Shown here one piece after another: positions 7,438 through 13,501 of a stretch of DNA of 13,501 nt. The DNA lies in the IMG/VR virus record IMGVR_UViG_2711768074_000021. One strand, given 5' to 3'. The notes under the pieces were generated by a model, which was given only the letters and a program-made list of their open reading frames with translations, was not told the origin of the DNA and searched no databases. Within the stretch, counting starts at the first letter, position 1. Each line of letters starts with the position of its first letter. This DNA comes from a virus. Its lineage: Duplodnaviria > Heunggongvirae > Uroviricota > Caudoviricetes. Made by a program: the position numbers and the translations under genes.

Positions 7438-7986
7438 ATGAAGACACTAAAAGCAACTCCAGAAACAACTAATTTTATCAACTGCGGCTGTGTTACGCTT
7501 AAGGGCTTAGAACTTGATTCCTTTGCATTAAATATTGCAAATTTGCTAAGTGCTGTACGCACATTCCATCTTCTGGATTGTGCTCGCTCAAAGGAACTGG
7601 GCATTGAGGTAATGGAATTTATCCATGAATATGCTCTATCTGCTGCTTCTCCTGCACAACAAAAACAATCCTTCCCTGAAAGCTGGCTGGTTAACCTTCG
7701 CACCCAACGCGAAGCCTGCGGCTTAACAACCGCCGAACTCGCCAGGCTGCTCGATCTCGATGAAGAAATTATCATCCAGTGGGAGAGCGGAGAGTATGAA
7801 CCAACTATCAGTATGCTTATCCCACTGGCAAATATTCTTGGCTGCGATCCGATGTGCCTGTTAACTGGTGAGGTTACTCCTCCGGAGCAACCAAAAAGTG
7901 AGGAGCAGCAACACCATGACGCATCTCAACAAGTTTGCCCCTTATCTCGCGAAGCTCTTCTGCGGAAGAACCAATACCAATGGTGA
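7438..7986 (+). CDS. Hypothetical protein with XRE-type HTH in its C-terminal half (about 183 aa)
   Basis: LTTAELARLLDLDEEIIIQWESGEYEPTISMLIPLANILGCDPMCLLTG is a clear HTH_XRE. The N-terminal 90 aa are unassigned. Start taken at ATG 7438. The 3' 113 nt overlap an antisense ORF (7874-8134), so the true end is uncertain. Confidence 0.55.
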   Translation: MKTLKATPETTNFINCGCVTLKGLELDSFALNIANLLSAVRTFHLLDCARSKELGIEVMEFIHEYALSAASPAQQKQSFPESWLVNLRTQREACGLTTAELARLLDLDEEIIIQWESGEYEPTISMLIPLANILGCDPMCLLTGEVTPPEQPKSEEQQHHDASQQVCPLSREALLRKNQYQW

Positions 7987-8114
7987 CATAATCGCCGCTT
8001 CGCCCTTCAAGGTACATGCGAACATTTTTATCAATCATTGCGGAAACAGTCTCAATATGAAAACACTTCTGAGACTCGCTATATAGCAGAACATATAAGT
8101 CAGCTGAGGAAGCC

Positions 8115-8480
8115 ATGAAAAAGTTCGAAAACATAACTGTTCTCCATGTTGATGACTTTGATTATACAAACCCGGAACTTCTCCCGGAGGTTGTAAAGGC
8201 AATGGATGTTGCCGATATAGTGATTAGAGAAAAGAGAATTGTCAAAAACAGGCTCGCATGCACTTCAGGAGCAATGACAGAAACAACCTCACAGCAAGAT
8301 AATTACGAAGGCATTTGTCTGGAGCCTGATTCATTTGCGGTAAATGTTTATCATTTATTGCATGCAACACAGGTATTACATATGTCCAGTAATCACGAAA
8401 CGAAAACACTCGGCAGCGAAATTCTGAGTTTTGCATGTGAGTATACAAAAGCTGCTGCCGAAAAAGAATTAGCGCAATAA
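8115..8480 (+). CDS. Hypothetical protein (121 aa), accessory cassette
   Basis: ORF with a GAGGAA Shine-Dalgarno 5 nt upstream of the ATG. AT-rich codon usage unlike the replication genes. No family recognised. Confidence 0.55.
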   Translation: MKKFENITVLHVDDFDYTNPELLPEVVKAMDVADIVIREKRIVKNRLACTSGAMTETTSQQDNYEGICLEPDSFAVNVYHLLHATQVLHMSSNHETKTLGSEILSFACEYTKAAAEKELAQ

Positions 8481-8558
8481 CAACAAATATGCCCTGAACG
8501 TTTATTGCGGTTTTATCGCCGGGGATTGTTACAACCTTAATCCACAGGAGGCTTTATT

Positions 8559-8672
8559 GTGACTTTTATAAAGAATATGGCATCACACAAGACCGCCTGC
8601 CTTATTGCACAATACGGTGAAAATTACATGCATATTGCCTGCTTATTTCTGCGTAAAGCATACGGGAGATAA
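8559..8672 (+). CDS. Candidate small ORF (37 aa, GTG start), possible leader peptide
   Basis: Perfect AGGAGG (8546-8551) 7 nt upstream of GTG 8559. Reads MTFIKNMASHKTACLIAQYGENYMHIACLFLRKAYGR. Its stop lies 2 nt before the next gene ATG. Below the ORF-track size cutoff. Confidence 0.3.
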   Translation: MTFIKNMASHKTACLIAQYGENYMHIACLFLRKAYGR

Positions 8673-8674
8673 TA

Positions 8675-8875
8675 ATGCATCAGAAAACAGCAGAACACGA
8701 ACAAACCAGAATATTGCTGACCATCAAAAACGGGAAAGTAATATTCATTCTCCATGTTCATGACGATGAACTTGTAGGAACTCTTTCAACATTCCTGTTT
8801 ATTGCAGAAAAGGCAGGATATGACGTTATTGCACCAGCAGATGAAGATGAAGATGAAGATGAAGATGAGGAATAA
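8675..8875 (+). CDS. Hypothetical small protein (66 aa) with poly-acidic C-terminal tail
   Basis: ORF ending ...APADEDEDEDEDEE. Followed 5 nt later by the next gene, so a two-gene unit. Confidence 0.5.
   Translation: MHQKTAEHEQTRILLTIKNGKVIFILHVHDDELVGTLSTFLFIAEKAGYDVIAPADEDEDEDEDEE
8840..8872 (+). repeat. In-frame hexanucleotide tandem repeat (GATGAA)x4 + GATGAG + GAA
   Basis: Read directly. Encodes the DEDEDEDEDEE tail and also carries the Shine-Dalgarno (GAGGAA 8867-8872) of the downstream gene. Confidence 0.9.
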
Positions 8876-8880
8876 ATATC

Positions 8881-9462
8881 ATGCAATACGATGAATTCCA
8901 GGCTGAAGCAACAGCCAATGGTATACGAACTGGCAGTATGACGATTGATTATCACGACGCCATACGTCGTCTGGATGCCGGAGAATTCGATACTCCTAAT
9001 GTGCGAGGTTTACGTATCCTTCAGTGTCTGGCGCAAGCCGACGAAGCAGGATTACTGGGTAAACTTCCGGTTGAGATGAAGGTTGCTCAGTGGCGATGGT
9101 TGTATGTGACGACATTCATCAACGAAGAAGAAGACAAGAACGGCACAATTGATATCCTGAATGAACACGGAACAACTGAACACGCCGTGGTATATAACGG
9201 GATGTATGGGTTTATGACGATATATCCCGGCCCCATTCGATTTGCCTTACAACAGTATATTGAATGGAATTTAATTCAAAAATACGGCGAAGCTGAAGGA
9301 ATGGGAAGAGCGCTGTTTCTTTATCAGAAAATGCTCACTACTTCCCCTGATAAAGGTTTCATTCTTTCAGATATGGGTCGAGAAGGGCTTGAAATCCTTC
9401 TGGATGAAATTATTAACGAAATGAATACTCATGGCATGCAATCCGAAACAGATATTAAGTAA
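8881..9462 (+). CDS. Hypothetical protein (193 aa), accessory cassette
   Basis: ORF with a GAGGAA Shine-Dalgarno 8 nt upstream. Tightly linked to the 66-aa gene. No family recognised. Confidence 0.6.
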   Translation: MQYDEFQAEATANGIRTGSMTIDYHDAIRRLDAGEFDTPNVRGLRILQCLAQADEAGLLGKLPVEMKVAQWRWLYVTTFINEEEDKNGTIDILNEHGTTEHAVVYNGMYGFMTIYPGPIRFALQQYIEWNLIQKYGEAEGMGRALFLYQKMLTTSPDKGFILSDMGREGLEILLDEIINEMNTHGMQSETDIK

Positions 9463-9472
9463 AAGGGACCAC

Positions 9473-9658
9473 ATGACCGTTATCGAGTATATCCAGGAAA
9501 ATCCAGATTGCAGTAGAGAAGATATATCCCTCGCACTTGGAAGAAGCGCAACTTCTATCAGTAATGAATTATCACGGTTATTGTGGAATGGGTTAATAGT
9601 ACGAACTGGAGAAAAAAACAAAATGATTCTGTACTGCGTAAACAATCTGCCGTTTTGA
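9473..9658 (+). CDS. Small winged-helix-like DNA-binding protein (about 61 aa); 3' end coincides with the IS terminus
   Basis: MTVIEYIQENPDCSREDISLALGRSATSISNELSRLLWNGLIVRTGEKNK has a wHTH-like pattern. Start taken at ATG 9473 (GGGA 4-5 nt upstream). The TGA stop (9656-9658) is the first three bases of the IS left end. Confidence 0.5.
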   Translation: MTVIEYIQENPDCSREDISLALGRSATSISNELSRLLWNGLIVRTGEKNKMILYCVNNLPF

Positions 9659-9727
9659 AGTGGCACACTGAATTTGGCCACCTGAACAGAGGTGATATGC
9701 TCACCTCAGAACAACACAGGTGCTCCA

Positions 9728-10417
<690 letters not shown>

Positions 10418-11073
10418 GTGTGCCCGGAGTTCAGGGCGGGCATGGATGCTTAAATGAACCGCGAGTCTGTCTGGAATATTGAACCGGTAACTCACGATGA
10501 GAAACCCAACAATCCCACCGGGTGTGACGGTGGAGAACCTGAGCGGCAGTGACCTGCGGCATGCCCGCAGGGTGATGTAACCCGCTGACAACGGGGATTG
10601 AGGCGAGATCACTAAGCCGAGATGATCCTCAAGGTTAAGTACTGAAAGGCTGAAGAACATGAACCCGTTAATCCGCCTCTGTGGGTTGAAAACGTCACCA
10701 CGGCCTACGTGATCTGACAGGCCGTGCAGGAGGAACTGGCAGTGATACGTAAGCACTGCCGGTCGAAGGTGTTTTGACATGTATGCGAAACACCGGGGCA
10801 GCAGCGTCTATCACGCTTGCGTTGCTGACTTCTGCCAACTTGCGGCAAGCAAGGATAAAGAGTGCGACGGGCAGCCTCCTCAGTATGCCTGAGTCCAGGC
10901 AGGTAAACCGGGGAAGGTCAGCGACGGATGTTAAGGGGGCATGGCTCCGATGACGCGCTGGCTGGCGGAGCTTCCGTAGTAGTCCGCGATGGGGAAAGCC
11001 CATTACATGGCGAAGGGAAGCAGTTTGAATGTGTTTGCGACGTGAATTAACTGACCTAACGAGGTGAAGACCT

Positions 11074-12597
11074 TTGATAATCAGCGAAATGCAACGCAAG
11101 CTTGCCACATGGGCAGTCACCGATCCGTCCCTACGGATTCAACGGCTGCTGCGTCTGATAACACAACCAGAATGGCTGGCTGAAGCGGCGCGGATCACGC
11201 TTTCATCAAAGGGGGCCCATACCCCCGGCGTTGATGGCGTGAACAAAACAATGCTACAGGCCAGACTGGCTGTTGAGCTGCAAATCCTCAGGGATGAATT
11301 ACTCTCAGGCCACTACCAGCCCTTGCCCGCCAGACGGGTTTACATCCCTAAAAGCAACGGCAAACTGCGACCACTGGGTATCCCCGCGTTGCGGGATCGT
11401 ATTGTTCAGCGGGCCATGCTGATGGCGATGGAGCCGATATGGGAGAGTGATTTTCATACGCTCTCATATGGCTTCCGGCCTGAGCGCAGTGTCCACCACG
11501 CGATCCGCACGGTGAAATTACAGCTCACAGACTGTGGTGAAACCCGGGGACGCTGGGTGATTGAAGGCGACCTGTCCAGTTACTTCGACACCGTACATCA
11601 TCGACTGCTGATGAAGGCTGTACGCCGCAGGATCAGTGACGCACGTTTCATGACTCTGCTGTGGAAAACCATCAAGGCGGGACATATCGATGTCGGTCTC
11701 TTTCGGGCGGCCAGTGAAGGTGTGCCACAGGGCGGTGTTATATCGCCGCTATTATCGAACATCATGCTGAATGAGTTCGATCAATACCTGCATGAGCGCT
11801 ACCTGAGCGGGAAAGCCAGAAAAGATCGGTGGTACTGGAATAACAGTATCCAACGGGGCCGAAGTACGGCGGTCAGAGAAAACTGGCAGTGGAAACCCGC
11901 GGTGGCGTACTGCCGCTATGCCGATGATTTTGTCCTCATCGTCAAAGGCACCAAAGCACAGGCGGAAGCCATCAGGGAGGAGTGTCGGGGTGTGCTCGAA
12001 GGCAGTCTGAAACTCAGGCTGAACATGGATAAGACTAAAATCACCCATGTTAATGACGGCTTTATCTTTCTGGGGCACAGGATCATTCGCAAACGCAGTC
12101 GTTATGGCGAGATGCGAGTGGTCTCAACGATCCCGCAGGAGAAAGCCAGAAACTTCGCCGCATCGCTGACAGCACTGTTATCAGGCAACTACAGTGAAAG
12201 CAAAGTCGATATGGCTGAACAACTCAACCGAAAACTGAAAGGCTGGGCCATGTTCTATCAGTTCGTTGATTTTAAGGCCAAAGTCTTCAGTTATATCGAC
12301 CGTGTCGTGTTCTGGAAGCTGGCTCACTGGCTGGCCCGCAAATACCGTACAGGTATCGCTTCCCTGATGAGGTGGTGGTGTAAATCACCGAAACCGGGTC
12401 AGAGCAAAACGTGGGTTTTATTTGGTAAAACCAATCACGGCAAGCTCAGCGGCGAAATACTGTACCGGTTGGTGGGGCAAGGCAAGAAGCTGTTCCGCTG
12501 GCGGCTACCCGAAGGTAATCCCTATCTGAGGACGGAGACCAGAAACACGTATACATCGCGCTTTACAGAAGTGGCAATGGCGTTCGCCAGCATTTAA
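11074..12597 (+). CDS. Group II intron-encoded reverse transcriptase/maturase, no recognisable endonuclease domain
   Basis: RT blocks present: RPLGIPALRDRIVQRA, SYGFRPERSVHHAI, EGDLSSYFDTVHH, GVPQGGVISPLLSNIMLNEFD, CRYADDFVLIV, plus maturase (X) region LNRKLKGWAMFYQF. No HNH or Cys-rich C-terminus. Start is TTG 11074 (GAGGTGA Shine-Dalgarno at 11061-11067) or ATG 11089. Confidence 0.9.
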   Translation: MIISEMQRKLATWAVTDPSLRIQRLLRLITQPEWLAEAARITLSSKGAHTPGVDGVNKTMLQARLAVELQILRDELLSGHYQPLPARRVYIPKSNGKLRPLGIPALRDRIVQRAMLMAMEPIWESDFHTLSYGFRPERSVHHAIRTVKLQLTDCGETRGRWVIEGDLSSYFDTVHHRLLMKAVRRRISDARFMTLLWKTIKAGHIDVGLFRAASEGVPQGGVISPLLSNIMLNEFDQYLHERYLSGKARKDRWYWNNSIQRGRSTAVRENWQWKPAVAYCRYADDFVLIVKGTKAQAEAIREECRGVLEGSLKLRLNMDKTKITHVNDGFIFLGHRIIRKRSRYGEMRVVSTIPQEKARNFAASLTALLSGNYSESKVDMAEQLNRKLKGWAMFYQFVDFKAKVFSYIDRVVFWKLAHWLARKYRTGIASLMRWWCKSPKPGQSKTWVLFGKTNHGKLSGEILYRLVGQGKKLFRWRLPEGNPYLRTETRNTYTSRFTEVAMAFASI

Positions 12598-12602
12598 ATG
12601 GA

Positions 12603-12636
12603 GAGCCGGATGCGCTGAAAGGTGCACGTCCGGTTC
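12603..12636 (+). ncRNA. Group II intron domain V (catalytic hairpin)
   Basis: GAGCCGGATGCGCTGAAAGGTGCACGTCCGGTTC fits the 34-nt domain V consensus: AGC triad at positions 2-4, GAAA-type loop, terminal GAGCCGG/CCGGTTC pairing. Confidence 0.8.
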
Positions 12637-12687
12637 GGGGAGGAGAGGCAGGGAAATAGTCCGACTACGCCCTGCCTCTTACTCTAC

Positions 12688-13160
12688 TCAGCACATGGCA
12701 GGGCTTCGTTTATGTGGCGTTCATCATTGATGTGTTCGCCGGATACATCGTGGGATGGCGGGTCTCATCGTCCATGGAAACGACATTCGTGCTGGATGCA
12801 CTGGAGCAGGCAGTATGGGACCGTCGTCCGTCTGGCACTATCCATCACTGTGATAAAGGTTCTCTGTATGTATCGCTGGCCTACACGCAGCGGCTTAAGG
12901 AAGCAGGATTACTGGCATCAACAGGGAGCACAGGCGACTCGTATGACAACGCGATGGCGGAGAGCATCAATGGTCTTTACAAAGCGGAGGTAATACACCG
13001 TAATAGCTGGAAAAACCGGACAGAAGTGGAACTGGCCACACTAACGTGGGTGGACTGGTATAACAATCGACGATTGCTGGGAAGGCTGGATCATATCCCT
13101 CCGGCAGAAGCAGAAAAAGCTTATTATGCTTCCATCAGAAACGATGATCTGGCAGCCTGA
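12688..13160 (+). CDS. IS3-family transposase OrfB, exon 2 (DDE catalytic core, C-terminal part)
   Basis: Translation (I)STWQGFVYVAFIIDVFAGYIVGW ... HHCDKGSLYVSLAYTQRLKEAGLLASTGSTGDSYDNAMAESINGLYKAEVIHR ... is an rve/DDE core. In frame with exon 1 after intron removal. Stop at 13158-13160. Confidence 0.8.
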
Positions 13161-13501
13161 GTTCACAAATAAAACAATCTCCAGGAAACCCGGGGCGGTT
13201 CAAATTTCGCAGAGGGCTGGCTTCTGATGCTGACGCTAACGTGCTTTTCCCACCTGCTAACCAGAAAGTAATCTGCCCAGCATAACAGTAACCCCATCAG
13301 CTTAAAATCAATAACGCCCTGTAAAACCTGAAGTAACAGTCCGGGAACTCGTATCATGCTAACATATCAGTGTTGTGAAGCAGTCGACAACGAGCTTCAG
13401 ACGTAAGCGTGCAGCAAGAACCGTATTGACGGGGATGTGTTATTCAGTCGGCAGTGCTACGCGCCAGGGGAGCAGTTCGCCGACCCGGTTTATCGGCCAG
13501 T

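Follow-up and report, generated by a model that had tools for sequence, protein, structure and literature searches.

The group II intron E.c.I4, a familiar self-splicing and mobile intron of E. coli, and its homing into the transposase genes of IS3-family insertion sequences (IS elements) have been in the literature from the early 2000s on. The intron has been assigned to class A (PMC3522654 Table S2), and E.c.I4 and S.f.I1 are both listed among the class A open reading frames (ORFs) that lack a recognisable D/En (DNA-binding/endonuclease) region (Toro & Martínez-Abarca 2013, PMC3552965). Its hosts on record are IS629, IS911, ISEc16 and ISEc31, and intron copies as well as tandems of intron and IS are regarded as substrates for ectopic recombination (PMC3522654). 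Here we analyse a stretch of 13,501 nt from the IMG/VR virus record IMGVR_UViG_2711768074_000021 (Caudoviricetes), referred to as the window, which carries a functional-looking E.c.I4 with one half of IS911 on its left and one half of an IS629-like element on its right, an arrangement that probably came about by recombination between two copies of the intron. A first-pass annotation of this DNA had proposed a complete group II intron at 10418-12687 that splits the transposase of one IS3-family element, so that active transposase would require splicing. The intron was borne out with every feature listed for it, while the single host element was not.

The intron occupies positions 10418..12687 of the plus strand (2,270 nt) and differs by 3 mismatches from the copy of E. 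coli E24377A at NC_009801:4848623-4850893 (2,267 of 2,270 nt identical; 99.87%). This locus is catalogued as E.c.I4-2b, with 99% identity to the database entry (Leclercq & Cordaux 2012, Table S3, PMC3522654). Judged by its sequence, the intron is E.c.I4, already known and named; the earlier annotation, which had left class and name to a database comparison, had not recognised it. For the class we follow the literature, by which the intron would belong to class A (PMC3552965, PMC3522654). The window copy agrees with E.c.I4 (equivalent to S.f.I1, of Escherichia and Shigella) in length, in an endonuclease-lacking (En-minus) intron-encoded protein of 502 aa and in its insertion point within IS3-family transposase genes, and is set apart not by the intron itself but by its exons, which stem from two different host IS elements.

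Both edges of the intron can be read off intact elements. Intact IS911 runs uninterrupted through the intron site as ...GTGACCTATA/TCTGG (the slash marks the insertion point; in longer form ...GGTGATGTGACCTATA/TCTGGACGGG in the intact copy of strain D1), the intact IS629-like element runs through it as ...ACTTACG/TCAGCACATGG (...GATTTTACTTACG/TCAGCACATGG in E. coli O103:H2 12009), and the window reads ...GTGACCTATA, then the intron (GTGTG...CTCTAC), then TCAGCACATGG. Because the intact IS911 and IS629-like elements read straight across both edges, the insertion is exactly 10418-12687. Joining 10417 to 12688 gives the codon ATC and keeps the frame open, and splicing would give exons ligated at this junction.

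The 5' exon, 9656..10417 on the plus strand, is the left 762 nt of IS911; a single mismatch in 761 nt (99.87% identity) sets it apart from the intact copy annotated in strain D1. It opens with the left terminal inverted repeat (IRL), TGAAGTGGCACAC..., and contains orfA (9728..10030; Pfam HTH_Tnp_1), the A6G frameshift site (9979..9985) and the N-terminal part of orfB (Pfam HTH_21), which closes with ...VWCGDVTY and the first base of the next codon. Up to ...DVTY this exon is thus 99.9% identical to IS911. The true continuation of IS911 (TCTGGACGGGTAAGCGC..., coding IWTGKRWAYLAVVLDLF) is missing, and with it the right 485 nt of the element, comprising two thirds of the catalytic core and the right terminal inverted repeat (IRR). 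The sole missense difference from strain D1 lies at 10127-10132, where CTT replaces CCT and OrfB changes from ...KNRPEKPD... to ...KNRLEKPD....

The 3' exon, 12688..13202 on the plus strand, is the right 515 nt of a different element, an IS629-like member of the IS3 family that we call ISx. It is 100% identical to the corresponding part of an intact, intron-free ISx in E. coli O103:H2 12009 (L001:13291-14515), encodes the C-terminal catalytic core STWQGFVYVAFIIDVF...DDLAA (Pfam rve, rve_3 and rve_2) up to a stop at 13158-13160, and finishes with the IRR, ...CCCGGGGCGGTTCA. With IS629/IS1203-type elements it has the catalytic core and the type of IRR in common. The DNA is 93-94% identical to copies of that type, and the parent, of which the window holds the right 515 nt only, is a distinct relative rather than IS629 proper; RefSeq labels it just 'IS3 family transposase'. 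The identity with O103:H2 12009 extends 200 nt past the end of the IS into genomic-island DNA. This flank (13203..13403), which belongs to the ISx locus and not to IS911, recurs with 100% identity beside the ISx of both O103:H2 12009 and 2013C-4991. The window closes, from about 13403 to 13501, with the final ~100 nt of an IS66-family element (end GTAAGCGTGC...), which match the tnpC end of a copy in E24377A at 100% identity; the element interrupts, at about 13403, island DNA that is continuous in O103:H2 12009.

Comparison of the two halves underlines how little they belong together. The parents, IS911 and ISx, have OrfB proteins with 26% identity to each other, and no DNA similarity was detectable between the own 3' half of IS911 and the 3' exon of the window. 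The IRL (TGAAGTGGCACACTG...) and the reverse complement of the IRR (TGAACCGCCCCGGGT...; in longer form TGAACCGCCCCGGG...) have little in common beyond TGAA, and the triplets flanking the unit, TTT and AAT, are no target duplication of the kind seen in strain D1, where a duplicated TCT borders the intact IS911. By these comparisons the exons are not those of one IS but of IS911 on the left (99.9%) and an IS629-like element on the right (100%), and, its ends being mismatched, the hybrid unit is not a transposable IS. The proposal of an intron within an IS3-family transposase holds insofar as the coding sequence on both sides is of the IS3 family, but the halves have separate sources. Likewise, the restored codon ATC and open frame predicted for the splice junction are there, yet the conserved block 'D-V-T-Y-I ... 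VYVAFIIDVF' described as spanning it is a chimera, since the exons come from two elements.

How two such halves came to share one intron is most simply pictured as an exchange between introns. One copy of E.c.I4 would have resided in IS911, which in the window lies within a lambdoid prophage or borders on one, and another in an IS629-like element; by RecA-type homologous recombination between these copies the loci would then have been fused into a hybrid of IS911 left part, E.c.I4 and ISx right part. Recombination between introns is the parsimonious route, as they offer 2,270 nt of identity and the IS elements only a few shared bases at the joint. We looked for the presumed parental states in complete E. 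coli genomes with 200-nt junction queries, counting records in which at least 80% of the query was covered. The 5' junction of IS911 with the intron was found in 1,286 records and the 3' junction of the intron with IS911 in 1,027; for the IS629-like element the corresponding numbers are 1,791 and 1,638. Both parental states are hence common. Moreover, the very ISx locus represented in the window, flank included, is free of the intron in O103:H2 12009, and in strain 2013C-4991 it has E.c.I4 between both ISx exons.

Hybrids of the composition seen here recur. With a query designed so that 80% coverage or more could be attained by IS911-like/intron/IS629-like hybrids alone, they were found in 116 of the 5,426 complete E. 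coli genomes. A larger figure of 632 records at 80% coverage or more was dropped as a hybrid count, as IS911 and the intron alone suffice to attain that coverage. At least two of the hybrids, in strain Eco-15 and in O104:H4, are independent of that in the window, differing from it in exon alleles and flanks. An intron-free junction of IS911 with ISx was found in none of the 5,426 genomes, and partial matches to the corresponding query are ordinary IS629-type elements that align through the homologous motif. The situation is reminiscent of the intron-mediated ectopic recombination reported for group II introns of Wolbachia and discussed for the tandems of E.c.I4 and IS elements in Enterobacteriales (PMC3522654), in that identical copies are dispersed and the flanks of the product differ in origin; unlike there, the event in the window is deduced from one junction only. 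As to the surroundings of the other two hybrids, that of Eco-15 (L003, 3001-6548) adjoins papI, and that of O104:H4 FDAARGOS_349 (L004, 3001-7771) immediately precedes the autotransporter gene pic and has an IS30 within its IS911 part. According to RefSeq, the 3' exons of both contain internal stops.

Several observations weigh against an origin by recombination between introns. Compared with the ISx-borne intron of 2013C-4991 the window copy shows 6 differences, all of them left of 12537, while the 867 nt from 12537 to 13403 are identical, and the crossover cannot be located; either it took place within the last 151 nt of the intron, or the ancestral ISx-borne copy was of another allele. The window as a whole occurs in no complete E. 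coli genome record. Finally, a misassembly through a repeat of 2.27 kb would look identical to a genuine crossover.

This last point leads to the possibility that an IS911::E.c.I4 locus and an ISx::E.c.I4 locus were mis-joined in assembly through the repeated intron, which we consider unlikely. The intron is indeed a repeat, present at up to 20 places per genome, and it stands alone on contigs of about 2.27 kb in many drafts, in which short reads did not resolve it; in addition, neither the whole window nor its junction of prophage and IS911 is found in any complete genome. However, hybrids of the same type are contained in 116 complete genomes, many of them based on long reads, and the hybrid of the well-studied O104:H4 outbreak lineage recurs in many independently sequenced isolates. 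Short-read assemblers, too, normally break at such repeats rather than span 3.5 kb of repeated DNA.

An order of events in which a hybrid IS formed first, by recombination or by nested transposition at the conserved motif, and E.c.I4 retrohomed into it afterwards appears highly improbable. Its appeal lies in the junction, GATGTGACCTATA/TC, which keeps a target that E.c.I4 could use. The few bases shared by the IS elements at the joint are nevertheless far too little for homologous recombination, compared with the 2,270 nt shared by the introns, and the intron-free intermediate is missing from the genomes in which the intron-bearing parents are common. That a single IS3-family element was invaded by the intron and makes its transposase only after splicing, as first proposed, is hardly tenable: although the frame is kept across the splice junction, a complete rve core spans it and a single host IS is the normal state of other E.c.I4 copies (for example in E24377A, L006, and 2013C-4991, L008), this reading is contradicted by the dissimilar halves, the mismatched inverted repeats without target duplication, the right flank taken from the ISx locus of O103:H2 and the absence of an intron-free IS of this composition from all 5,426 genomes.

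With recombination between intron copies as the favoured origin, the window copy marks an old recombination joint, not one interrupted IS. The transposase fragments beside it should accordingly not be annotated or read as parts of one interrupted element. In the IS-rich genomes of pathogenic E. coli and Shigella, intron-bridged hybrids of this kind more generally mark sites where rearrangement once took place.

The hybrid frame itself is open. It connects the DNA-binding and N-terminal part of IS911 through D-V-T-Y-I with the IS629-like catalytic core, and the ligated ORF contains a complete rve integrase core across the junction (positions 2-101 of the 102 in the profile). If the locus is transcribed from IS911 and the transcript spliced, an in-frame chimeric OrfAB would result. 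It is conceivable, but in our estimation very unlikely, that the hybrid encodes a splicing-dependent chimeric transposase acting in trans on IS911 ends, and that recombination between introns, which sit at one codon and in one phase in many different IS3-family transposase genes, thereby amounts to a bacterial form of exon shuffling. Module swapping mediated by introns would in that case give rise to new IS3-family transposases.

E.c.I4 is widespread in the species. The intron has matches in 2,669 of the 5,426 complete E. coli genomes, with a near-full-length copy in 1,874 of those 2,669, and thousands of records contain these 2,270 nt with an identity of at least 99%, far beyond chance. In many draft assemblies it forms a contig of its own, about 2.25-2.29 kb long (L009, L013, L016, L037, L047, L055, L067, L071 and others). 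Contigs of nearly intron length indicate that multiple copies have collapsed into one and that assemblies break at this repeat, and a near-identical multi-copy intron of 2.27 kb is a spot where they can break or be mis-joined. According to a survey of 2020, class A introns are scarce (PMC7306698), yet 311 related stretches turned up in data with one genome per species.

The intron-encoded protein is a reverse transcriptase (RT)/maturase of 502 aa with the motif YADD, encoded at 11089..12597 on the plus strand (the mechanical ORF list begins this frame at a TTG at 11074). The ORF sits in domain IV, between domains III and V. The protein matches Pfam RVT_1 (1.5e-34) and GIIM (1.3e-10) and scores 341 bits with TIGR04416, the NCBIfam equivalog model of group II intron RT/maturases, above its cut-off of 300. 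RVT_1 and GIIM are the only Pfam domains; no HNH or other endonuclease domain was found in Pfam at E-values up to 0.01, which makes the protein En-minus, as had been proposed. An identical ORF is already annotated ltrA in RefSeq and E.c.I4 is known, so that the intron as such has little discovery value.

The ends of the intron conform to what is expected of the group. GTGTG at 10418-10422 corresponds to the GUGYG 5' end, and at the 3' end the Rfam family RF00029 matches 12601-12687 with 64.9 bits (gathering score 40, E 3.6e-11), covering all 77 model positions and stopping exactly at 12687, the 3' boundary given by the first-pass annotation. Domain V (12603..12636, plus strand) is a hairpin of 34 nt with the AGC triad, a 2-nt bulge and a GAAA loop, on which the RF00029 alignment and a fold of 12598-12687 agree. 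The same fold, whose z-score against shuffled sequences is -5.8, and the same alignment place domain VI at 12639..12685 (plus strand), with a single bulged A, A12681, as the 7th nucleotide from the 3' end of the intron; this residue, noted earlier as well, is a candidate for the branch point.

Domains I-III had to be approached differently. Over 10380-12720 the Rfam D1-D4 families remained without a match even at a permissive threshold (only domain V/VI families appeared), for which reason these domains were assessed by covariation in relatives. A search with the intron protein against one genome per bacterial species provided 80 loci with 66-100% protein identity, 55 of which were aligned, each with 20 nt of 5' exon and all sequence up to the ORF. 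The RNAalifold consensus of these 55 relatives delimits domain I (10423..10912), domain II (10913..10966), domain III (10970..11021) and the base of domain IV (from 11051), all on the plus strand. A nearly invariant hairpin, DIVa (11061..11074, plus strand), stands shortly ahead of the start codon of the RT/maturase. Standard pairs occupy 95.2% of the 9,500 cells of the consensus, as opposed to 35-42% in a control in which the 3' partners were slid by 1-3 columns. Changes on both sides occur in 117 of 174 pairs, and the observed pairing measures were reached by none of 500 shuffles. The fold of domains I-III is thus supported by covariation within this intron clade. A minimum-free-energy fold of the first 660 nt as a single sequence served as a source of candidate loops only and not as evidence. 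The first-pass annotation had made its boundaries depend on the folding of domains I-VI; with I-III backed by covariation and V and VI by RF00029, they stand, and the copy is full-length and apparently functional.

The alignment also reveals how the intron could recognise its target. A conserved segment of 5 nt that we take to be exon-binding site 2 (EBS2), ACGUC at 10692..10696 (plus strand), pairs with exon positions -13 to -9, which in IS911 form the intron-binding site 2 (IBS2) GAUGU (GATGT, 10405..10409). Across the 55 relatives 96% of the cells of this helix are paired and 4 of its 5 pairs show compensatory changes, such as AUGUC/GACAU, AGGUC/GACCU or GACUU, UCAUC/GAUGA and AAGUA/UACUU. 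A candidate EBS1, CGUAAG, lies at 10748..10753 (plus strand) in the loop of the hairpin 10738-10762. It is the perfect complement of the IBS1 of the IS629-like element (CUUACG); with that of IS911 (CCUAUA; CCTATA, 10412..10417), 4 of the 6 positions pair. In the relatives 75.6% of the cells of this helix are paired, with good support at positions -2 to -4 and -6, and exons that have AGC at -7 to -5 covary clearly with the loop. What counts against it is weak support for pairing at -1 and -5, on account of which we regard the assignment of EBS1 to 10748-10753 as probable, short of proven. The perfect fit of IS911 to EBS2 and of the IS629-like element to EBS1 may explain why one intron uses both hosts. 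Two other candidates were rejected: UGUGGG at 10680-10685 as EBS1, which falls within conserved helices (alignment columns 300-312), and an 8-bp extension of the EBS2 pairing in IS911 (ACGUCACC with GGUGAUGU) as a general feature, UC(A/G)CC being invariant while the exon varies.

The site itself is conserved well beyond E. coli. In 50 of 52 alignable relatives the intron lies in frame at the same codon of a DDE (IS3-type) transposase gene, after D-x-(T/S)-(Y/F), and the first base of the 3' exon is T, again in 50 of 52. The ligated exons of the relatives translate into the continuous IS3-type motif ...W..D.TY....GW.YLA.V.DL.SR. Among the relatives of the intron protein (loci L010-L087, 66-100% identity), the alignable loci belong to Gamma- and Alphaproteobacteria, Desulfobacterota, Nitrospirota and others. 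These data are consistent with homing by reverse splicing into DNA that codes for the conserved D-x-T-Y motif, which includes the first catalytic Asp of IS3-family transposases, the site being found through base pairing of EBS2 with IBS2 and of EBS1 with IBS1. The D-x-T-Y motif is shared by IS911 and the IS629-like elements, which accounts for the same intron at the same codon in both. Since the endonuclease is absent, and by analogy with other En-minus introns, cDNA synthesis would presumably be primed from nascent strands at replication forks. Covariation of EBS2 with the exon, together with siting at D-x-T-Y across many phyla, could be of use to the field of group II intron targeting.

Upstream of IS911, positions 120-9655 of the window represent the early/replication region of a lambdoid prophage, with a replicative helicase, Rha-family regulators and repressor-like genes. 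This part is 99.8% identical to a prophage of O55:H7 RM12579, and its homology to complete E. coli genomes ends at the left end of IS911, the junction of prophage and IS911 being present in none of the 5,426. Two matches (H68 and H69) that seemed to continue the prophage homology into the IS region were discarded; one is a joined piece and the other is ISEc52 at another position in a prophage. Near the Rha-family regulator genes, on the minus strand, the prophage part shows Rfam matches to a C4 antisense RNA (5123-5210; RF01695, 75.1 bits) and, beside it on the same strand, to the Hfq-binding RNA isrK (5232-5308; RF01394, 62.3 bits).

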